A DNA stretch of 64,000 bases. Origin: an uncultured Bdellovibrio sp. GTDB lineage: Bacteria > Bdellovibrionota > Bdellovibrionia > Bdellovibrionales > Bdellovibrionaceae. Below the pieces are notes generated by a model that was not told the origin of the DNA, searched no databases, and saw only the letters and a program-made list of their open reading frames with translations. The stretch's first letter is position 1, and every line of letters begins with the position of its first letter. This document shows positions 3,016-58,492 of the stretch, piece by piece. The stretch is taken from contig CBIHNW010000025.1 of assembly GCA_966211795.1 (NCBI GenBank), positions 3,787 to 67,786 on the forward strand, written 5' to 3'. Position numbers and translations under genes: made by a program.

Positions 3016-4598
3016 AAAAATCCTCCGATGCCAGCCTCAAGCATTCGGCTCTGCTGCTGTTGATGAGCGACCGCCAGGATCGTGAGGGCCCGCTTGTCGA
3101 TTTTACCCCGACTGGTGACCGGAAGCTCGTCCATCGCCAGCACCAAAGAAGGCGTGCAGTAATAAGGTAGCAAATGCGCGACTTGGTTTTTAGCGCTCTC
3201 AACATCGACGTGACCGGGTCTCACGAAGGCCACCAAGTTTCGGCTGTCGAGCTTCAAGGTCACGGCCTGCTCGATTTCAGGAATCTTCTCTAAAGCGGCC
3301 GACACCGAGTCCAGCTCCACCCGAAAGCCACGGATCTTCACCTGATCATCGGTGCGGCCAAAATGTTCAAGCTCCCCATCGGCGGTCCATCGGCCAAGGT
3401 CCCGGGTGCGAAACATTTTTCGTCCGCCACCCAAGAAGGGATCATCTTTGTATCGCTCTTCCGTCAGGACGGGATTGCCAATATACCCCAAGGACACACA
3501 GTCACCGCCCGCCCACATCTCGCCAATCTCGCCGATCGCACACGGTGTGAGATCTTCATTCAGAATGTAGACGCTATTATTGGGCGTGGGCTTACCGATA
3601 GTCAGTTTCCCTCTCTGTGGATCATACTCGTGAACCGTGTTGACGATCGTGACTTCGGTGGGCCCGCACGAATTGTGAAAGCGGCAAAACTGGGACCACT
3701 TCTCGGCTAAAGAGGCGGGGCAGGGCTCGCCGGCGACCGCGGCCACTTTGATATTTCGGCAAAGATTGGCATCCAATCCTGCTAGGATGCTTGGGGTTCC
3801 GATCACGACGTCGACTTGGCTGACGGCCTCTTGGATGCTTTTCCCCCGAATGATCAACTCGCAGCCATGCGACAAGGCCCCAAGAATTTCCCAAGCCGCC
3901 ATATCGAAGGCGATATTGAGAATCTGCGAAACCTTCTGACCGGCCCGCAAGCCTAAATCCCCAGGCGAGGTCAGTAGAATATTGCAAAGATTTTGATGCG
4001 TGACCATCACTCCATTGGGAAAGCCCGTCGTTCCAGAGGTGAACAAGACAAAGCAAAGCTGATGGGCCAAAGCCACATTTCCAGCATCGATTTGCGGATT
4101 CTCGGCTGGTGCGTCTGATTGTTTCTGCATGAATTCATCAATCGCCAGCAATGGAATGTCTTTGAATTCTGGCAATGTCGGCACAAGATCTTTCAGCGTC
4201 AGGATCATTTTGGATTTTGATGTTCGCGCAACGTGTTGAAGCTGAGGGCCCGGCGCAATCCGCGAATCTTGCGGGACATAGGCCGCGCCAGTTTTCAAAA
4301 TGCCCAAGATGCCCACAACCATGGAAATCGAGCGCTCTAGAAAAAGCGCAATGTGATCTCCCGGACGAACTCCTTGATGAATTAAATGTTTGGCCAGAAG
4401 ATTCGCCCGACGGTTCAACTCACCATAGGAAATCGTTTGGTCCAAGTGGGACACGGCCGGGGCCTGCGGATGCCGTCTCACCTGATCTTCAATCGCCCGG
4501 TGGATCAACGAATGCGGTGGCTTCACGCTTTCGGCGAAGCCAAATTTTTCAAAAAGAATTTGATCTTGATTGGATAAAGTTTGCAGTTGCGCTTTCAT
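3012..4598 (-). CDS. stand-alone NRPS-type adenylation (AMP-binding) enzyme
   Basis: Core motifs read in order: ISYGEL (A1), LKTGAAYVPQD (A2), FTSGTTGFPNG (A3), FDMAAWE (A4), NSCGPTE (A5), GEMWAGGDCVSLGY (A6), FRTRDLG (A7), GRTDDQVKIRGFRVEL (A8), LPYYCTPS (A9), SRGKIDKRAL (A10). The protein ends after A10 with no carrier domain. Confidence 0.85.
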   Translation of the reverse strand: MKAQLQTLSNQDQILFEKFGFAESVKPPHSLIHRAIEDQVRRHPQAPAVSHLDQTISYGELNRRANLLAKHLIHQGVRPGDHIALFLERSISMVVGILGILKTGAAYVPQDSRIAPGPQLQHVARTSKSKMILTLKDLVPTLPEFKDIPLLAIDEFMQKQSDAPAENPQIDAGNVALAHQLCFVLFTSGTTGFPNGVMVTHQNLCNILLTSPGDLGLRAGQKVSQILNIAFDMAAWEILGALSHGCELIIRGKSIQEAVSQVDVVIGTPSILAGLDANLCRNIKVAAVAGEPCPASLAEKWSQFCRFHNSCGPTEVTIVNTVHEYDPQRGKLTIGKPTPNNSVYILNEDLTPCAIGEIGEMWAGGDCVSLGYIGNPVLTEERYKDDPFLGGGRKMFRTRDLGRWTADGELEHFGRTDDQVKIRGFRVELDSVSAALEKIPEIEQAVTLKLDSRNLVAFVRPGHVDVESAKNQVAHLLPYYCTPSLVLAMDELPVTSRGKIDKRALTILAVAHQQQQSRMLEAGIGGFL

Positions 4599-12977: not shown

Positions 12978-13159
12978 CTCCTTCTACTCACTTGGGAAGC
13001 GACGATCATGCCACCAGGGACGCAGTCAAAACGAAGTTGTCGCAATCTCAAGCCGCTCGCCGCATTTGAGCCGACTTCGGGCGAGCAGGTGTTGAAAAGT
13101 TTAACAGGGTGGAGGTGAGTTCGGGGGTTGGTTCGGGGTGATGTTTGGGGGTTTTGCTT

Positions 13160-13208
13160 GTGGATGGTGGTTTGTGGATGATGGTTTGTGGATGGTGGTT
13201 TGTGGGTG
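13160..13208. repeat. 14-bp G/T-rich tandem repeat (GTGGATGGTGGTTT, about 3.5 copies)
   Basis: Units read at 13160-13173, 13174-13187 (one mismatch) and 13188-13201, with a partial fourth copy. GTTCGGGG-type G-runs precede it. Confidence 0.8.
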
Positions 13209-13260
13209 AAGTTGATTCCTGAGTACGTTTGCTGGGTGGTTCGCCGGATTCACGACTGGC

Positions 13261-13400
13261 ATGAAGATCTGCGCTGCAATCTTTGAGCTCTGGACGAACA
13301 TCAAACCGTGCTCTTGAATCTTGAAGACTCCTGCGCGCATGAAGCTTTGCGCTGGAATTTTAGAATCCGCGATGCACATAAAGCTCTGCGGAATATTTCT
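13261..13400. repeat. degenerate tandem array of the TGAAGCTTTGCGC-type motif (copy 1, about 5 units)
   Basis: Motif hits at about 13262, 13283, 13322, 13340 and 13378, with spacing of 18-60 bp. The same motif family forms the array at 35461-35790. Confidence 0.7.
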
Positions 13401-13410
13401 GCTAATGGAA

Positions 13411-13658
13411 TATTTATTTGACAGCATTTTCGTTCGGAAGCGCTTGAGAGGATTTGTTTTTTTAGGCGTCTCTCCGATGCCTTTCATTCGCGAGCATTAG
13501 CTTTGTATAGCGATTACTGATTGTGATTCGAGACCGCCCATAAATTTTCAAATTCATTTGAGCAGCTAGCCCACGAGCGTGTTCGTTTTCGCTTTTAAAT
13601 CTCGTGATAAGGTCGCTTTGAATTTATGAGAATTATTTTTTTAAGAGGAGATTTGAAA
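13411..13658 (+). other. conserved non-coding leader of HNH module 1
   Basis: It shares ordered blocks with 35802-36045: TATTTATTTGACAGC, GATGCCYTTCATTCGC, TTGATTCGAGRCC, TAAATTTT, AGCAGC, CTCGTGATAAGGTC, AAGGAGAT. No conserved ORF on either strand. Confidence 0.55.
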
Positions 13659-14645
13659 ATGAAGATTGAAACAGATAAAAAATTGAGCAAGATTTTGAAT
13701 ATCAAAAATTTAAGCGATTCTTTGTTGCTTGAAAAAACGAACGGCCTGGTCAAAGAAGAACGCGAAGTGCTGACAAATCTTTTGCATCACTTCCGCGAGA
13801 TCGAGCGGCGTCGTCTTTTCTGCGATTATAAATATGAATCACTTCGCGAGATGCTCGTGAAGCATTTTGGATATTCGGATGATGAAGCCTACCGAAGAAT
13901 ATCTGCCATGTGGTTACTTAAAGACGTGCCAGAAGTGGAAGAGAAGATCACAAATGGCGAACTCTCGCTATCACACTTAAGCATGGCTCAGTCTTTCTTT
14001 CGAAAAGAAGCAAAGATCCATAAAGTTGAGATTTCGAAAGAAGATAAGCTTGGTCTTCTGGCAGAGATCAGCGAGCAAACAATCCGAGAAGCGCAGAGAA
14101 TTATGCTCGCCCAGTCTTCAGCTCCGGAGGAACTGCGGCCTGACAAAGTCACGATCATTAGCGAAGCAAAAATTGAATTCCGGTTCACCGCGAATCAATC
14201 CTTGGAATCCAAAATCTCGGAAGTCAAAGGCCTGCTCGCCCACAAGCATCCAAATCTATCGATGGGAGAACTGCTAGAAGTGCTTTGCGAAATATCCATC
14301 GAAGCTTTAAAAAAAGAGAAGACTTCGACATCAAAAACTGAAAAGATCGCGACGCCCAGGAGAAGCTGCGTCAGTGAAACTCAGATCAGCAGTCCTCACA
14401 GCGATGCGACGTCCGTGGTAAAACCAAAATCCCAAGCTCAAATCAACCGCGAAGTCTGGCAAGAAAGCCAGCATCAATGCAGCAACTGCGGATCAAAGCG
14501 CGGACTCGAAATCGATCACAGGCATCCCAAAGCTAAGGGCGGAGAAAACTGCAAAGACAATCTCCGCATCCTCTGCCGAAAATGCAATCAGCGTGCGGCT
14601 ATCAAAGAATACGGGCAACTCAAGATGGATCTCTACCTGAATTAG
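13659..14645 (+). CDS. HNH endonuclease (DUF222-like N-terminal domain plus C-terminal HNH/Zn-finger), copy 1
   Basis: The C-terminus CSNCGSKRGLEIDHRHPKAKGGENCKDNLRILCRKCNQRA contains CxxC...DH...N...CxxC. AAGAGGAG RBS before the ATG at 13659. Close paralog of 36046-37119. Confidence 0.85.
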   Translation: MKIETDKKLSKILNIKNLSDSLLLEKTNGLVKEEREVLTNLLHHFREIERRRLFCDYKYESLREMLVKHFGYSDDEAYRRISAMWLLKDVPEVEEKITNGELSLSHLSMAQSFFRKEAKIHKVEISKEDKLGLLAEISEQTIREAQRIMLAQSSAPEELRPDKVTIISEAKIEFRFTANQSLESKISEVKGLLAHKHPNLSMGELLEVLCEISIEALKKEKTSTSKTEKIATPRRSCVSETQISSPHSDATSVVKPKSQAQINREVWQESQHQCSNCGSKRGLEIDHRHPKAKGGENCKDNLRILCRKCNQRAAIKEYGQLKMDLYLN

Positions 14646-14812
14646 AAATCTCTTTCCACATCAGGCTCCGCGCGAAAGTCCGCAGGGGACCACCCAGTAT
14701 GGTGGTGCCCGTTGCGTGCGCTCTCTCCATGGATCTTAGAAAGCTGCTTCAGGCATCAAGCTTTGTGCGAAAGCAAGCGAAGGCATACAGCCCTCGCCTT
14801 CAGGCGGAGAAG

Positions 14813-32614: not shown

Positions 32615-33344
32615 AACAAGACAGACATATTGCATCACCGGCTGTTGCCAGTGGACAAGGCTTGCGGCATCGATTTGAATGTCAGGTCTGTGAGCCAATC
32701 AAAAACCTTCTTTCAAGCCTATTTGCAAACGATCCAAAGAGTGGGCGTGGTTCTTTTCATCTTCGCCTTGGCCGGCACCTTTTTCGATCAATGGGTGACC
32801 AACCAAATGGCCTTGATGCTGGCAAACCCCCAAGGCACCAGCCACTGGGTGTGGTTCTACGGAGCCATTTCTTTGGTTTGGGGTGTGGTCTACCCACTTG
32901 CGAATTTGCTCTTGATCTTATCGGTCCTGCAGCCCCAGCCTTTGCTCAAATTTTGGTTCCAAACTTTCCCGCACGCCATGATCGAGCTCATGCGCTCTTG
33001 GGGCAAGTCCATGCTCTGGGCTTTTCTGCTGATCATTCCGGGCGTCGTCGCTTTTATACGCTACCTGTTTGTGCCCTTTATCGTCTGCCTGGATCCTCTC
33101 TACCCCCAAGGTGAGCGCGAGGCCCTGCAAAGATCCTGGGCCCTCTCGAAGGGTCGCATGTGGCGGCTCTTTGGATTTTTCATGCTCACTTCGCTGGTGG
33201 TGCCGGCCTTCTTGTCGGTCTTTGATGATTTGAAAATTTTGACCGAACACCCGGTGACGAGCGTATTGATTTGCCTGTTGGAGATGTTTTTGAATATTGC
33301 TTTCAGTCTCTGGCTCTGGAAAATCTATCAAAGGAGTGTGCAAA

Positions 33345-34397
<1,053 letters not shown>

Positions 34398-34558
34398 GAT
34401 ATTATGTTTCTTGAGTGCCTTGACCGAAACTGGACCATAGCTCTTTTGACCTGGACCTCGGGAACCGCTATTCTAATTTCACCTAGAAACGAGCTTTTTT
34501 GCTGCTCAGATTAGCTTCAATTTCAGGTTGTTCTGATTCTTTTATCCGACTTCGATAG

Positions 34559-34590
34559 AACCCGTTCCAAAAGAACGGGTTTTGTTTTTT
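34559..34590 (+). terminator. rho-independent terminator
   Basis: AACCCGTTC-CAAAA-GAACGGGTT followed by TTGTTTTTT. It lies about 160 nt after the upstream stop codon. Confidence 0.75.
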
Positions 34591-34632
34591 CTGCTTCCCG
34601 TCGGCGCGCTTGATCGGTCAACATCAAATGAT

Positions 34633-35421
34633 ATGGCAAAAATTGGCGTGTTTGATTCAGGTGTGGGTGGATTGACGGTTCTCAAAGAACTCGCCTCTCA
34701 CTTTCCCAAAGAAGAGTTTCTTTATCTCGGCGACACCGCCCGTCTGCCTTACGGCACCAAATCTGCAGAAACCATTCGCCAGTATTCGGAACAGATTCTG
34801 GGGTTTCTGACCGAGCGAAAGGTCGACGCCCTGGTCATCGCCTGCAACACGGCCTCATCGCAAGTGCCCAAGCGCGATTGGCAGGGCCTGCCGGTCTTCA
34901 ACGTGATCGAACCGGGTGCCGAGTACGCGGTCACCCACAGCCAGAACCAACGCATCGGCGTTCTCGGCACGCGCGCGCTGATCGCCAGTGGCGCTTACCA
35001 GAAGGAAATCCAAAAGCTCTCAGCAGGCGCCCAGGTCTTCGCGCAAAGCTGTCCTTTGTTCGTGCCGCTGGCGGAAGAGGGATGGCTCGAAGATCCGATC
35101 ACGAACTTGATCGCCTATCGCTACCTGCATCCCTTGCTCGAGTCGCAGATCGACACCTTGATCATGGGCTGCACGCATTATCCCTTGCTGAAAACCTCGA
35201 TCCAGCGAGCCTGCGGGGCGCATGTCAATCTCGTGGATTCCGGCAAAGCCTTGGCCTTGCAGCTGGAGAAGGCTTTTGACTCTCAACGTTTGCAACGCTC
35301 TTCTCGAGAGGCCGGAGAGATCCACATCCTGGCCACGGACCTGTCTTCGCACACGCAGGATCTCGCGGCGCAGATTCTGAATCCACTTCGGGTGGCTTCG
35401 TTTGAGGTTGTGCACTTGTGA
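34633..35421 (+). CDS. murI: glutamate racemase
   Basis: IGVFDSGVGGLTVL, LGDTARLPYG, the IACNTAS (Cys1) and GCTHYPLL (Cys2) motifs. Confidence 0.9.
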   Translation: MAKIGVFDSGVGGLTVLKELASHFPKEEFLYLGDTARLPYGTKSAETIRQYSEQILGFLTERKVDALVIACNTASSQVPKRDWQGLPVFNVIEPGAEYAVTHSQNQRIGVLGTRALIASGAYQKEIQKLSAGAQVFAQSCPLFVPLAEEGWLEDPITNLIAYRYLHPLLESQIDTLIMGCTHYPLLKTSIQRACGAHVNLVDSGKALALQLEKAFDSQRLQRSSREAGEIHILATDLSSHTQDLAAQILNPLRVASFEVVHL

Positions 35422-35460
35422 ATGGGATTTGGCTTGCGGAGGTTTTATCTCGTGTCGCGG

Positions 35461-35790
35461 ATGAAGTTTTGCTGTGATCTCGCGTAGGTCTCGCTCCGCA
35501 ACTGAAGCTTTACGCTGAAATCTTACGGGGATTTCTCCATAGCTGAACTTTATTTCTGCATCGTGGAACCGCTGCGCAAATGAAGCTCAGTGCCAGGCGG
35601 CTTCGATCTTTGCGATTGTCACGAAGCTTCGCGGCTGCATTTGAATTCCGCTGCGGACATGAAGCTTTGCACCGCCAGCGGCGGACGTGAATTTTGCGTT
35701 CGCATCAAGCTAGGCCCGCGCTGCACGCGAAGGCTTGCAGCCGTGTCTTGAGTGGCTTCTGCTGCGTGCGTGAAGCTCCGCGGAATTTTC
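35461..35790. repeat. degenerate tandem array of the TGAAGCTTTGCGC-type motif (copy 2, about 10 units)
   Basis: Motif hits at about 35462, 35503, 35544, 35581, 35622, 35642, 35660, 35688, 35705, 35728 and 35771, at 18-42 bp spacing. Confidence 0.7.
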
Positions 35791-35801
35791 GAGGTCATAG
35801 A

Positions 35802-36045
35802 TATTTTATTTGACAGCCATTCGGGGCGAGATCGCCTGATGTGAATTGGTTTTTCATGTTTTCTCTGTGATGCCCTTCATTCGCTCGCATTGGCTCTCTG
35901 TTGAGAGTGGCAATTTTGATTCGAGGCCCGTCGTAAATTTTTAAACTCGGAGTAGCAGCCAGACAGGCAGAGACCACGAATTCCGATTTAAAACTCGTGA
36001 TAAGGTCTCCGTGATATCACGATTTATTTTAAAGGAGATCTGCAA
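35802..36045 (+). other. conserved non-coding leader of HNH module 2
   Basis: Colinear conserved blocks with 13411-13658. It ends in AAGGAG plus 7 nt plus ATG. Confidence 0.55.
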
Positions 36046-37119
36046 ATGAAGACTGAGATGAACAAAGCGATGAACATTAAAAATTTGAACGACACTCTTC
36101 TCGTGCAAAAAACTGAAGTCTTGGTGAAAGAAGAGCGTGAAGTGCTGACGAAGCTTTTGCATTATTTCCGGGAGATTGAACGACGCCGCCTTTATTGCGA
36201 TTACAAGTACAAATCACTTCGCGAAATGCTGGTGAAACATTTTGGATATTCGGATCATGAGGCCTACCGAAGAATCTCTGCCATGTGGCTTTTAATAGAT
36301 GTTCCAGAGATGGAAGAAAAAATCACGAATGGTGCATTATCTTTAACTCACCTAAGCCTTGCACAGTCTTTCTTTCGAAATGAAGCAAAGATTCATCATG
36401 TTTCAATATCAAAAGAAGATAAGCTTGAGCTTCTCGCTGAGATTAGCGAGCAAACAATCCGCGAGGCGCAGAGAATTATGCTCTCGCAGTCTTCGGCTCC
36501 AGAGGAACTGCGGCCTGACAAGATGAGCGTCATCAGTGAGCAGAAAATAGAAATCCGGTTCGCCGCGAATAAATCATTGGAAGAAAAAATCTCGGAAGTG
36601 AAAGGCTTGCTAGCCCACAAGCATCCGAATCTATCATTGGGAGAATTGCTCGAGGTGCTTTGCGATCTTTCGATCAAAACCTTGAAGAAAGCAAAGACCG
36701 AGACCTTGTCGAAACAAAAGTCCGCGGCGCAAAGGAAAGGCCGCGTCACCAAAGTGCGAATGGATGATTCTCAAAAGCTTGAATCGCAGTCGAGCGTGAA
36801 CACAGATATTCATGATTCACGATCAGCGAAGCCAGACTTTCAAGCGCCACAAACAGCGACCACACCAAATATGGAGGACTCCGCCGAAAAGCTGAAACCC
36901 AAATCCCAAGCGCAAATCAGCCGCGAAGTTTGGCAGGAAAGCCAATACCAGTGCAGCAACTGCGGATCAAAGCGCGCGCTCGAGATCGATCACCTCAAGC
37001 CCAAAGCCAAAGGCGGCCTCAACACGAAAGAAAATCTTTGCGTCCTTTGCCGTGCCTGCAATCAGCGGGCGGCCATCAAAGAATTTGGGCAGCTCAAGAT
37101 GGATCTGTATTTGAATTAG
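36046..37119 (+). CDS. HNH endonuclease (DUF222-like N-domain plus HNH), copy 2
   Basis: By eye about 80% identical to copy 1 outside a variable linker. C-terminus CSNCGSKRALEIDHLKPKAKGGLNTKENLCVLCRACNQRA. Confidence 0.85.
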   Translation: MKTEMNKAMNIKNLNDTLLVQKTEVLVKEEREVLTKLLHYFREIERRRLYCDYKYKSLREMLVKHFGYSDHEAYRRISAMWLLIDVPEMEEKITNGALSLTHLSLAQSFFRNEAKIHHVSISKEDKLELLAEISEQTIREAQRIMLSQSSAPEELRPDKMSVISEQKIEIRFAANKSLEEKISEVKGLLAHKHPNLSLGELLEVLCDLSIKTLKKAKTETLSKQKSAAQRKGRVTKVRMDDSQKLESQSSVNTDIHDSRSAKPDFQAPQTATTPNMEDSAEKLKPKSQAQISREVWQESQYQCSNCGSKRALEIDHLKPKAKGGLNTKENLCVLCRACNQRAAIKEFGQLKMDLYLN

Positions 37120-37224
37120 ACGGGCTGACGAAGCCACGGTTGGGTTCGGCGGCCTTCCAGTGAAGTGGAAAGCCCTCTTGTGAATTGCAAACCCTTCCCG
37201 TCCGCCACATCGGGAGCCGCGGGA

Positions 37225-38418
37225 TTAAACGAAGATCTCCCTCGGTGGCGCGAATAGATTGTACGAGCTGGCCATCGAAGCGCCGTAGGCTCCAGCATCA
37301 GCCACCAGCAGCCAGTCGCCTTCTTGCACGCCTTTGAAGACGCGGTCTTTGCCGAGGAAATCTGAGGACTCGCAGACTGGGCCGACGACGTCGGCGGTGA
37401 ATTCTTCGCCGGCTTTCTTTTGCAAAGGCATGATGCGGTGGACAGCTTCGTACAGGGCCGGGCGAATCAGGTGGTGCATGCCCGAATTGCAGATCAGGAA
37501 ATTTTTGTCGGGCATTTTTTTGATATACTGCACCTGGGTGATCAGGACGCCACTGCGAGCGACCAGGAAGCGGCCGGGTTCAAGCTGAATTTGGGCCTCG
37601 AGACCCGCGAGCTCTTCTTTTAAAACTTGGCAATAATTTTCCATCCACTGCGCATCGGTCGAGGCATCCAGAGCGTAGTCAATACCAAGACCGCCGCCGA
37701 CATCAAAGGTCTGCATCGGAAAACCTTGGGCTTTCCAGGATTCGAAAACGCGGCGCTGGATTTGAATCGCCTCGCGCACGGCGGAAAATTCCATCAGCTG
37801 CGAGCCGATGTGGGAACTGACTCCCACCAATTGCAGGCTGGGATACTGTTTTAAAATTTCGAAAGCCAAAGCCAGCTGGGTTTCATCCATGCCGAATTTA
37901 TTTTCTTTGAATCCGGTCGAGATGTAGGGATGCGTTTTCGGATCGACGTTTGGATTGATGCGAAAAACGACCGAGACCTTTTTTCCCATTTGGTTCGACA
38001 CTTCGCCGATGCGCCGAAGTTCCGAAGCGCATTCGATGTTCAGCTGGCGGATGCCGGCCTTGAGACATTGCTGGATTTCGTCTTTGGTCTTAGCCACGCC
38101 CGAGAAAATAATTTGGTTGCCAAGAAAGCCAACTTCGAGCGCGCGGCGAAGCTCGCCACCGCTGACGATATCGACCCCGATATTTTGCGCCTTGAACAGT
38201 TTCAAAAGTTCGGGATGCGGATTGGCCTTCATGGCGTAATGCACGGAAAATCTTTGCGTCAACGCGCGGGCCACGTAAGACTGGAAAAGAAAAAGTCGGT
38301 CCTGCAAACCTTTTCGCGAATAGACATAGGCGGGCTCATCCCCGTCTTTCGCCAGATTTGAAAGACGCACACCATCGAGTTCCAATTCTCCATTTGAATT
38401 GTATTCCAGTTTTGACAC
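37225..38418 (-). CDS. lysA: diaminopimelate decarboxylase
   Basis: YAMKANPHPELL (PLP Lys), GGGLGIDY, CESSDFLGKD, GAYGASMASSYN. Confidence 0.9.
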   Translation of the reverse strand: MSKLEYNSNGELELDGVRLSNLAKDGDEPAYVYSRKGLQDRLFLFQSYVARALTQRFSVHYAMKANPHPELLKLFKAQNIGVDIVSGGELRRALEVGFLGNQIIFSGVAKTKDEIQQCLKAGIRQLNIECASELRRIGEVSNQMGKKVSVVFRINPNVDPKTHPYISTGFKENKFGMDETQLALAFEILKQYPSLQLVGVSSHIGSQLMEFSAVREAIQIQRRVFESWKAQGFPMQTFDVGGGLGIDYALDASTDAQWMENYCQVLKEELAGLEAQIQLEPGRFLVARSGVLITQVQYIKKMPDKNFLICNSGMHHLIRPALYEAVHRIMPLQKKAGEEFTADVVGPVCESSDFLGKDRVFKGVQEGDWLLVADAGAYGASMASSYNLFAPPREIFV

Positions 38419-38447
38419 GCGAAACCTTTTCTCCTAAATCTGAAGAG

Positions 38448-39173
38448 ATGACAAACGCAAACGCATCTTCGATCTCTTCAACAGTCTTCTCTTCCGTCTC
38501 GTCGACAGTATCTGCCTTTACCTTCGGCCACAGTCCCCTTGGACTGCCAATCCAAGCCTATCGCTTTTCCAATGGCGGCGCAAAAGTTCTGATTCTCGGC
38601 GGAGTGCACGGTGACGAAATCGAAGGCGTGATCGCAAGCCACGGTCTGCTGCGTGAGTTTTCACATTCATTTCCCTACAATCTCGACCTGGTGCTGGTCC
38701 CCACCTTCAATATCGAGGGCGTCTTGCACCGAACCCGCACCAACTCTCGCGGTGTCGACCTCAATCGCAATCTTCCCACCAAGGATTGGTCGCCCGAGGT
38801 GAAAACCCCGCGCTACCATCCGGGTCCGTTTGCCGGCAGCGAACCGGAAAATAAAGCATTAGCTCGGTTTATCGAAAGCGAAAGTCCCCAGTTTTTGCTG
38901 AGCCTGCATTCCTGGCATCCGGTCTTAAACGTCAATGGGGATTGCATGAGTGAGGCCGAATCACTGGCGCGCTGGACGGGCTACCGCATCGATGCCGATA
39001 TCGGCTACCCAACGCCGGGGTGTCTGGGAACTTTTGCGGGGCTTGAGCGCCAGTCGCCGACATTGACTTACGAAATCGAGCGCGGGCTTTCGGCCGAGAA
39101 AATTTTAGAGATCCATGTCCCCGCCATTTTGGAATGCCTGAAAGAAACGGAAAAAAGAGGAGCGCGACCATGA
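38448..39173 (+). CDS. M14-family zinc peptidase (MpaA / succinylglutamate-desuccinylase-like amidase)
   Basis: ILGGVHGDEIEG (HxxE Zn site), DLNRN, LSLHSW. The stop overlaps the dapD start (ATGA at 39170-39173). Confidence 0.7.
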   Translation: MTNANASSISSTVFSSVSSTVSAFTFGHSPLGLPIQAYRFSNGGAKVLILGGVHGDEIEGVIASHGLLREFSHSFPYNLDLVLVPTFNIEGVLHRTRTNSRGVDLNRNLPTKDWSPEVKTPRYHPGPFAGSEPENKALARFIESESPQFLLSLHSWHPVLNVNGDCMSEAESLARWTGYRIDADIGYPTPGCLGTFAGLERQSPTLTYEIERGLSAEKILEIHVPAILECLKETEKRGARP

Positions 39174-39994
39174 ACTCATCCCAAATCGATCAAATATTTT
39201 CGGATCTACAACAGGGCAAAAACATCGATGACCTGCACACCGAAGAGATCGCCGCCATCGAGCAAACCATTGCGGGACTGGATCAAGGAAAAATTCGCGT
39301 CTGCGAAAAGACGCCGGCCGGATACCAGACTCATCAATGGATCAAGAAAGCGATACTGCTTTACTTTCGTTTGAAAAAAATGGCTCCGGTTCGCGCTGGC
39401 GACCTTGAATTTTATGATAAAATTCCGCTCAAGACCTGGTCTCCCGAAATGAATGTCCGCGTGGTGCCGCATGCGTTGGCTCGCTACGGATCTTTTCTTG
39501 AGCCCGGCGTGATCTTGATGCCTTCGTTTGTGAATATCGGCGCACATGTCGGGAGTGGCACCATGGTCGACACCTGGGCCACGGTTGGAAGCTGCGCGCA
39601 GGTTGGAAAAAATGTGCACCTTTCAGGCGGCGTCGGCATCGGCGGAGTCTTGGAACCCGTGCAAGCGAATCCCGTCATCATCGAAGACAATTGCTTTCTT
39701 GGCAGTCGCTGCATCGTCGTTGAAGGCGTGATCGTCGAAGAGGGCGCGGTGCTCGGCGCGGGCGTCACGCTGACCGCTAGCACTAAAATTTTGGATGTGA
39801 CAGGATCCAGCGCACAGACCATGCAAGGCCGCGTACCAGCGGGCTCGGTCGTGATTCCGGGAACGCAAACGAAGAAATTTCCGGCGGGCGAGTTCGGCGT
39901 GCCATGCGCACTGATCATCGGCAAACGAAAACCCAGCACGGACTTGAAAACGTCATTGAATGAAGCCCTTCGCGATTATCAGGTCAGCGTTTAG
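39170..39994 (+). CDS. dapD: 2,3,4,5-tetrahydropyridine-2,6-dicarboxylate N-succinyltransferase
   Basis: A long match to the classical DapD core: GTMVDTWATVGSCAQVGKNVHLSGGVGIGGVLEPVQANPVIIEDNCFLGSR. Confidence 0.9.
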   Translation: MNSSQIDQIFSDLQQGKNIDDLHTEEIAAIEQTIAGLDQGKIRVCEKTPAGYQTHQWIKKAILLYFRLKKMAPVRAGDLEFYDKIPLKTWSPEMNVRVVPHALARYGSFLEPGVILMPSFVNIGAHVGSGTMVDTWATVGSCAQVGKNVHLSGGVGIGGVLEPVQANPVIIEDNCFLGSRCIVVEGVIVEEGAVLGAGVTLTASTKILDVTGSSAQTMQGRVPAGSVVIPGTQTKKFPAGEFGVPCALIIGKRKPSTDLKTSLNEALRDYQVSV

Positions 39995-56653: not shown

Positions 56654-56729
56654 GGGCCTGTAGCGCAGCTGGGAGCGCGCTTGCATGGCATGCAAGAGGT
56701 CGTCGGTTCAATCCCGATCAGGTCCACCA
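56654..56729 (+). tRNA. tRNA-Ala (anticodon GGC)
   Basis: Cloverleaf folded by hand: acceptor GGGCCTG/CAGGTCC with the G3:U70 alanine identity pair, D-stem GCGC/GCGC, anticodon stem CTTGC/GCAAG with loop ATGGCAT, T-arm GTCGG-TTCAATC-CCGAT, and an encoded CCA. Confidence 0.9.
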
Positions 56730-57768: not shown

Positions 57769-57973
57769 GATATGGGAGCCAACAAAATCTCGATTTCGGC
57801 ACTTCTTCTGTCGTTGGCGTAGTCATTTCGACGGAATGAGATTTTCTGAATTACAAACATTAGCACCCCGATCAACGTAGCATCCGTCAAACCGAACTAT
57901 GCCTTGGGTATTGACTCTGGAATACTCATTGCAAGATGGGCCGCTGGAATCAAATCGGCACCAGGGGGTCACT

Positions 57974-58492
57974 TTGAAAATTCGAAATTTTATTTTTGCT
58001 ATCGCATTTTTTCTTCTCGCCTATTTAACTGCAAGCGCCTGCCCATCCATCTGTGGCTCGCCAACCTGCAGCGGCTATGATGGTCCCGGCGGCCCATGCT
58101 ACAGCGGTCCCGGCGGACCCATGTATGCCGGACCCGGTGGCGCCATGTATGATGGCCCCGGCGGGCCTCGGTACTCAGGTCCCGGTGGTGCGTGCTACGA
58201 CGGCCCCGGCGGAGCCTGTTATGCGGGTCCTGGCGGACCTGATGATTCGGGCCCGGGCGGCGCATGTTACGACGGTCCCGGTGGACCTCGATATTCGGGC
58301 CCCGGTGGTGCGTGCTACGATGGACCGGGCGGACCGCTTTATGATGGTCCCGGTGGCCCCCGATATGACGGCCCTGGTGGCACTTGCTACGACGGACCGG
58401 GCGGCAATTGTTATAGCGGCCCCGGGGTTTACGGATCTGGCGCTCACTGCCCTCGCATCTGCACCAATCCTTGTCCCTGCCCAAACAACTAA
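57974..58492 (+). CDS. secreted GPGGxxYx octapeptide-repeat protein with Cys-rich caps
   Basis: TTG start 5 nt after AGGGGG. Signal peptide (M)KIRNFIFAIAFFLLAYLTASA. Then come 14 consecutive GPGG-x-x-Y-x units flanked by CPSICGSPTCSG and CPRICTNPCPCPNN. Confidence 0.6.
   Translation: MKIRNFIFAIAFFLLAYLTASACPSICGSPTCSGYDGPGGPCYSGPGGPMYAGPGGAMYDGPGGPRYSGPGGACYDGPGGACYAGPGGPDDSGPGGACYDGPGGPRYSGPGGACYDGPGGPLYDGPGGPRYDGPGGTCYDGPGGNCYSGPGVYGSGAHCPRICTNPCPCPNN

Follow-up and report, generated by a model that had tools for sequence, protein, structure and literature searches.

The 64,000-nt window analysed here (the whole stretch of contig CBIHNW010000025.1, positions 3787 to 67786, from the uncultured Bdellovibrio sp. 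assembly GCA_966211795.1) contains two copies of a three-part module, in which a degenerate repeat array is followed by a conserved leader and a gene for an HNH endonuclease. Both copies belong to a family of at least 333 homologous proteins, and in the protein search every hit with an organism name came from Bdellovibrionota. In the reading that we favour, with a confidence that is about evenly balanced, these are multi-copy, autonomous HNH cassettes specific to Bdellovibrionota, which carry a DNA-acting control region and are gained and lost as units; our confidence in any single mechanistic step of this picture is much lower. The cassettes would each pair one gene with ∼250 bp of dedicated control DNA upstream of it, would sit in unrelated intergenic sites between housekeeping genes, and would be gained, lost or replaced as a whole, like free-standing homing-endonuclease genes. 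Such a cassette is probably selfish.

Both modules lie on the forward strand and have the same order of parts, which had been noticed in a preliminary description of this DNA and was confirmed together with the coordinates. In module 1, the array of ∼39-nt units (13255–13392) is followed by a distal box (13405–13432) that consists of an A/T-rich run, TTGAC (13418–13422) and TTTT, lies 38 nt past the last array unit, holds an exact block in common with module 2 and agrees with the family consensus. Next come a spacer of fixed length (13423–13604; 187–188 nt between TTGAC and the proximal TG), the proximal box CTCGTGATAAGGTC with the extended −10-like sequence TGaTAAGGT (13601–13614), a GGAG ribosome-binding site (13647–13650) and HNH gene 1 (13659–14645, 328 aa). 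In module 2, an array of ∼9 unit positions (35455–35784) precedes the distal box (35797–35824, with TTGAC at 35810–35814), the spacer (35815–35997; 188–189 nt from TTGAC to TG), the proximal box (35994–36007) and HNH gene 2 (36046–37119, 357 aa). Module 1 has 242 nt from TTGACA to ATG, against 237 nt for module 2, and the leader blocks that are common to both modules are TTTATTTGACAGC (exact, at 13413 and 35805), GATGCCyTTCATTCGC (at 13476 and 35869), CTCGTGATAAGGTC (exact, at 13601 and 35994) and the ribosome-binding site AGGAG. A small open reading frame (ORF) in the leader was ruled out by single-nucleotide indels between the copies. The homology of the two modules stops at the HNH stop codon, and they are flanked by unrelated housekeeping genes: module 1 lies between a 242-aa gene that Pfam does not recognise and a gene with Kelch repeats, beyond which BenE follows, and module 2 lies between the genes for glutamate racemase (murI) and a pyridoxal phosphate-dependent decarboxylase, with a GMP reductase gene nearby.

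The two HNH proteins are 69% identical overall (BLASTP), with 82% identity in the N-terminal domain and 84% in the HNH domain against 21% in the linker, in line with the earlier estimate of ∼80% identity apart from a variable linker. Pfam HNH (PF01844) covers only the C-terminal ∼45 residues of the window proteins, and the match (E 1e-9, 38.5 bits versus a cut-off of 21.4) places them in the HNH superfamily. Residues C274, C277, D286, H287, N301, C306, C309 and N310 are invariant across 40 sequences, so that both CxxC pairs and the DH and N residues are unchanged in 40 diverse members. The HNH domain is predicted to be catalytically intact, and the conservation pattern indicates that the protein is under purifying selection. 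In the AlphaFold model (mean predicted local distance difference test score 84.7), the N-terminal domain is entirely helical apart from one small hairpin, residues 227–251 form a disordered linker and an HNH fold follows; in a Foldseek search the model matches the HNH domains of McrA and Gme.

A genome scan found 268 loci of the family, and the 80 that were kept include three to six per metagenome-assembled genome (MAG); most MAGs have three to six copies or more. There were no relatives in IMG/VR viral contigs, GenBank phages or PLSDB plasmids. A metagenome scan with a single protein gave no matches, and an alignment-based scan found only relatives of at most 59% identity. The two window modules are best described as two old, diverged family copies. 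Identity at four-fold degenerate sites is 0.54 between them, and each copy is nearer to copies in other assemblies (81–84%) than to the other (69%). The common order of parts and the ∼80% identical protein domains could also have been produced by a recent segmental duplication within this genome, but the four-fold sites, the unrelated flanks and the closer outside relatives rule this out, leaving it next to no probability; the preliminary description had already discounted such a duplication from the differing flanks.

The upstream parts accompany the gene in close relatives. At 55–86% protein identity, eleven other loci show or allow the same three-part order (L081–L087, L160, L162 and L163/L001), the order unit-TTGACAGC-TGnTA is also present in L160 and L163, and an alignment of eight loci (both window copies and L082–L087) shows a conserved leader. 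The earlier proposal that the non-coding parts move with the gene thus holds for the leader and the array of these relatives, with the restriction that the array belongs to one clade only. In two of the eleven loci the contig ends within the module: in L081 (1–99) inside the leader, and in L082 (1–330) ∼70 nt upstream of the distal TTGAC, at the expected place of the array. Such ends are consistent with assembly breaks at multi-copy sequence. In two Peredibacter strains, 10 and 13 HNH endonuclease genes were reported, only six of them at shared sites (PMC13147790); these have in common with the present cassettes the gene type, stand-alone and several per Bdellovibrionota genome, and may belong to the same family.

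The extent of the mobile unit is indicated by two comparisons. In another clade, the homology among six paralogs of one MAG starts ∼260 nt before the ATG, runs to ∼15 nt behind the stop codon and does not extend further, which in that clade defines a discrete cassette of ∼1.2 kb. The second comparison comes from L165, a close relative at the site of module 2 (MurI 95% identical). The flanks of all fetched loci showed no synteny with the window flanks. Window segments 33001–35422 and 37227–39498 align to L165 at 87% nucleotide identity, and synteny breaks exactly at the murI stop codon and the decarboxylase stop codon, so the whole variable segment of module 2 is 35423–37226 on the forward strand. 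Its 1804 nt, which hold array, leader and HNH gene, are swapped in L165 for 1316 nt (L165:5791–7106) with a gene for a 325-aa AAA_14/DUF4143 ATPase. The array, leader and HNH gene thus behave as one insertion/replacement unit, and the murI/decarboxylase site seems to be a hot spot for the exchange of single-gene cassettes. If this is correct, the predators of Bdellovibrionota hold a large uncharacterised family of HNH cassettes that are swapped at intergenic sites between housekeeping genes.

Of the known systems, this arrangement is most like the free-standing HNH homing genes of T4-type phages, which also consist of a single HNH gene with its own expression signals between conserved genes, lack a transposase or partner gene, and are present, absent or replaced between close relatives. 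The difference between the window and L165 is of this kind, except that the L165 site is occupied by another gene and is not empty. It fits the earlier suggestion of a selfish or homing-type element, and the cassettes may spread or persist in the way of such homing genes. The present family further differs from the phage genes in being chromosomal in Bdellovibrionota and missing from the phage, viral and plasmid collections, in having several old paralogs per genome, in its different, unmatched N-terminal domain, and in an upstream geometry for which no counterpart has been described in the phage genes.

The leader is constrained. Across eight close relatives, identity at four-fold degenerate sites is 0.29–0.82 and near saturation in many pairs, and leader identity is 0.53–0.83 and exceeds synonymous identity in almost every pair (0.63 versus 0.29 for L084 and L086, for example). 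Since the leader remains this similar while synonymous sites approach saturation, it is under selection. Among hexamers in the DNA upstream of family members, TTGACA, CTTGAC and TTGACG are the most strongly enriched, and the distal box has the family consensus Aaaattt.tTTGAC.....tTT, so that the TATTTATTTGACAGC block of the window is the family-wide distal box, a −35-like element without a −10 partner. TAnnnT was found 16–19 nt after TTGAC in none of 67 loci, and an ordinary sigma-70 promoter at TTGACA was rejected, as no −10 element stands behind the perfect −35-like box. A promoter scan predicted no promoter in either module. As the proximal box, nearly all members have ttTtaAAAccCrTGnTA..., which corresponds to the CTCGTGATAAGGTC block of the window. 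Of 103 loci, 42 have TGnTAnnnT (an extended −10) upstream, where 0.07 would be expected per window, and the last hexamer position is T in 50 of 81. As CTCGTGATAAGGTC is thus extended −10-like, the mRNA probably starts only after most of the ‘leader’.

The two boxes are separated by a nearly constant distance. Between TTGAC and the TG in the proximal box there are 185–188 nt in 58 of 110 loci and 189–190 nt in four more, a second small group has 176–178 nt, and there is hardly any background besides the two peaks; both window modules fall within the main one. The sequences between the boxes are unalignable between clades, while the adjacent 5′ untranslated region (UTR), measured from the proximal box to the start codon in the same loci, varies four-fold in length (25–109 nt). 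The constant spacing therefore points to selection on length. If so, the family is a natural example of selection on DNA geometry, with a spacing that is kept across unalignable sequences. A/T-rich dinucleotides in the spacers are periodic at 11.0–11.25 bp with a power of 0.76–0.88. The power is 0.26 in random segments of the same loci, with none of 200 control sets reaching the observed value, and 0.35–0.40 in a set of 138 intergenic segments from elsewhere with the same A+T content (Mann–Whitney p ∼1e-7, uncorrected for relatedness).

These observations would be explained if the leader works mainly as DNA and not as structured RNA. The proximal box (TGnTAnnnT) would probably drive the mRNA, and the two boxes, held 186 ± 2 bp apart on DNA whose A/T runs are phased every 11 bp on the family average, would be brought together in a looped or wrapped protein–DNA complex. 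The binder may be the N-terminal domain of the nuclease itself, which would amount to autoregulation, or a nucleoid protein, and the complex would tightly restrain the synthesis of a nuclease that could be toxic. Operator loops and iterons (the lac, gal and ara loops and plasmid rep promoters) are similar in that two sites lie at a fixed, phase-sensitive distance on A/T-phased DNA, with direct repeats upstream and, here, an inverted unit-like copy inside the control region. The boxes look like promoter halves, unlike palindromic operators, and the loci are not replicons; the resemblance is one of form only. A more specific version, to which we attach only a low probability, is that the region represents a new promoter architecture, in which a −35-like box with an upstream A-tract and an extended −10-like box, each without its normal partner, have ∼166 extra bp (∼15 × 11.1 bp) between them and are looped or wrapped to switch transcription. 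The spacer would then be curved on the family average and wrapped by the N-terminal domain of the nuclease or by a nucleoid protein, and the 39-bp array of this clade would extend the same protein–DNA scaffold.

Several points weigh against the cassette picture and its control region. The proximal box is taken for a promoter from its consensus match only. In around 40% of family loci, no exact TTGAC/TGnTA pair stands at the spacing expected, and the 176–178-nt group, shorter by about one helical turn, is a single clade and so represents one event. The window's own two spacers have little 11-bp periodicity (0.2–0.5), so the phasing is a property of the family average. The N-terminal domain has no significant structural match in PDB or BFVD, which makes DNA binding by this domain an assumption. 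As to mobility, the paralogs are old and thus give no sign of recent movement within a genome, and neither a target site, terminal repeats nor nucleotide-level ends were found in this clade. At the only site that allows a comparison, the intergenic segment differs over its entire length, so the comparison with relatives that had been proposed for defining the module ends yields a block-wide difference.

A simpler account is that an ordinary cellular or selfish HNH gene is transcribed from an ordinary promoter, that the array and the microsatellites found at its position in other loci are neutral scars of slippage or repair, and that the spacing reflects a compact regulatory region. It is favoured by the degeneracy of the array units, their differing number between loci, the restriction of the array to one clade, the presence of unrelated microsatellites at the same place in only ∼11% of loci of other clades, and the lack of strong A/T phasing in the window's own spacers. 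We nevertheless consider it unlikely, though with an appreciable remaining chance: a tolerance of ±2 bp over 186 bp in unalignable sequences, next to a 5′ UTR of 25–109 nt, needs selection on length, the last array unit keeps 37–39 nt to the distal box across 55–100% protein identity, and the unit cores are recognisable despite saturated synonymous sites.

The preliminary description had also considered a cis-acting RNA partner, and the conserved non-coding DNA just upstream of the gene, as with IscB, invites the explanation that the leader and/or the array is a guide or scaffold RNA of the type found in IscB–omegaRNA or TIGR-Tas systems. The best NCBIfam match of the HNH domain is indeed the HNH segment of IscB (E 1e-9 to 1e-10), and in PDB its sequence matches Cas9, IscB and the maturase of a group II intron. 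However, the IscB match is confined to the HNH segment and reaches 37–42 bits versus a family cut-off of 175 (NF040563), no RuvC match was obtained in Pfam or PDB, no PLMP or Nop domain is present, and the N-terminal domain has no structural match. No structured RNA of the HEARO-type omegaRNA kind was detected upstream of the gene by Rfam, folding or covariation. In Rfam, both modules gave only chance-level matches, with gathering thresholds as well as with E ≤ 10; the free energies of the 190-nt leaders match those of dinucleotide shuffles in eight close copies, and 51 diverse leaders have mean folding z-scores of +0.20 (plus strand) and −0.34 (minus strand), near 0 on both. With RNAalifold, there was no covariation in eight leaders of the close clade (term +0.17), there were no supported helices in six paralogs of a second clade (covariation term +2.5), and 51 diverse spacers had no consensus structure on either strand. 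The structured RNA partner thus finds no support in any of these three alignments, and the leader is probably not a structured RNA. In the six paralogs of the second clade (L024, L028–L030, L032 and L033), a short hairpin of the GAGCCATCGGGATGCTC type lies ∼115 nt upstream of the ATG, and by eye two copies show compensatory changes (CATC/GATG to CATT/AATG); RNAalifold predicted only part of its stem and counted no compensatory pair in it.

The tandem period of ∼39 nt in the array is near the 36 nt of TIGR arrays (PMC12045711), and Foldseek aligns TasH (9w04), although only over ∼63 HNH columns. The HNH domain of TasH is N-terminal (PMC12045711), while that of the present family is C-terminal, and the known TIGR hosts are viruses and candidate phyla radiation (CPR) bacteria (10.64898/2026.09.09.750476). 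TIGR arrays have two variable spacers bounded by box C/D motifs, whereas here the segments between the cores are homologous to each other and the cores are degenerate; in addition, most of the family has no array. Membership in TIGR-Tas was rejected from the descriptions in these two sources (PMC12045711; 10.64898/2026.09.09.750476) and the Foldseek result. The likeness to IscB–omegaRNA and TIGR-Tas therefore comes down to a Cas9/IscB-type HNH domain with conserved non-coding DNA and a tandem array beside the gene, and we regard an RNA-guided function as improbable. The family may serve as a negative control in searches for RNA-guided nucleases, as an HNH domain of IscB/Cas9 type is combined with a leader and an array and no sign of an RNA partner.

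The array units have the consensus GCGCACATGAAGCTTTGCGCT. With a position weight matrix trained on the window's own units, in which a score of at least 16 defines a strong core, module 1 has cores at 13255, 13333 and 13372 (scores 21.7, 31.5 and 22.7) and module 2 at 35455, 35496, 35574, 35615, 35653 and 35764, with weaker units between the strong cores and a period of 38–41 nt. No other position in the 64-kb window reaches this score on either strand, and a genome-wide repeat of the repetitive extragenic palindromic type was rejected, as units are found only in arrays. The segments that separate the cores share homology with one another, in the form of a cTTGGAGCTcgc sub-unit. Because of this relatedness the array is read as a decayed tandem duplication and not as a repeat–spacer array, and CRISPR- or TIGR-like spacers were rejected on the same ground. 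The array, always on the strand of the HNH gene, lies upstream of every member with ∼55% or higher identity for which upstream sequence is available (L083–L087, L160, L162 and L163/L001), so that, for leader and array alike, close relatives do carry the upstream blocks; it was not found in more distant family members (below ∼55% protein identity).

The last unit lies 37–39 nt before TTGAC in eight loci that span 55–100% protein identity, so the distal box occupies the next position of the array, and the core of the distal box, TGACAGC, resembles the unit core TGAAGCT. Two further sequences are unit-like, namely an inverted block (GCCCTTCATTCGCGCGCA) ∼60 nt inside the spacer, which is GATGCCTTTCATTCGC at 13476–13491 in module 1 and lies at 35869–35884 in module 2, and the start-codon region gcaaATGAAGac; these resemblances are short and may be due to chance. 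In the cassette picture, the array would most likely supply extra binding sites of the same kind, in an iteron-like manner, or would be a by-product of repeated duplication at the left edge.

The position and strand of the array also recall type III toxin–antitoxin pairs such as ToxIN, in which short tandem repeats that directly precede a nuclease gene on its own strand encode an RNA antitoxin whose units neutralise the toxin. The three to nine unit positions with a period of 38–41 nt and the lack of a protein partner of the HNH gene in any locus would suit such a pair. The ToxI-type repeats are near-identical, in contrast to the strongly degenerate units here (matrix scores 16–31), no terminator is predicted between array and gene, which are instead separated by ∼240 nt of conserved DNA, no promoter is predicted upstream of the arrays, the HNH fold is of the DNase type and not ToxN-like, and most family members have no array. 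We therefore consider this explanation very improbable.

Repeats other than the array accumulate at the same edge of the cassette. Tandem repeats occur at 0.22 per kb upstream of family members versus 0.03 per kb elsewhere (∼8-fold), and unrelated micro- or minisatellites occupy the position of the array in the ∼11% of loci of other clades noted above. Repeats at this position include a 6-mer ×10 in L057, where a run of N lies inside the upstream microsatellite, a 4-mer ×8 in L060, a 7-mer ×8 in L068, a 15-mer ×17 in L080 and GTTT ×5 in L086. Module 1 is bordered on its left by 3.4 tandem copies of a G/T-rich 14-nt unit (TTGTGGATGGTGGT, 13158–13205, forward strand), which form the strongest non-coding tandem repeat in the window (Tandem Repeats Finder score 89). 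In L162 (1620–1790), an extra tandem repeat with units of 27–40 nt (GGCGCAAGCCGGAAATTAA...) lies between the unit and the distal box and shows once more that repeats form at the cassette's left edge. The left-border repeats could serve phase-variable expression or could be scars of repeated duplication at the cassette edge.

The N-terminal domain is probably DNA-binding; Foldseek alignments of this domain with sigma factors and G protein-coupled receptors are weak and non-significant (probability ≤0.12). Its helical architecture recalls the DUF222-HNH proteins of Actinobacteria (the ‘13E12 repeat family’, REP13E12), which likewise combine a helical N-terminal domain of ∼220 aa with a C-terminal HNH domain and occur as several dispersed copies per genome. 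They belong to a different phylum, Pfam DUF222 (PF02720) is matched in only two of 40 members of the present family (best E 0.018), and neither window protein matches it at E ≤ 0.1. Remote homology to DUF222 is possible. In the literature that could be searched, there is no description of the family, of its distribution or, above all, of the 186 ± 2 bp spacing, as the preliminary description had supposed for the architecture; the stand-alone HNH gene type is known (PMC13147790).

Some further repeats and genes were noted. A weak unit-like sequence (14749–14769, forward strand, matrix score 12.7) lies 104 nt downstream of HNH gene 1, and its membership in the module is uncertain. In L083, a second tandem array with a period of ∼20 nt lies downstream of the HNH gene (∼4045–4145), and its unit GAGCTCCGTnTGCG resembles the right half of the upstream unit. 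Elsewhere in the window, a tRNA gene (56654–56726) is the only Rfam match above the gathering threshold, and coding tandem repeats of 24, 48, 72 and 120 nt (58076–58425, within the ORF 57899–58492) encode a Gly/Pro-rich repetitive protein and are unrelated to the cassettes.

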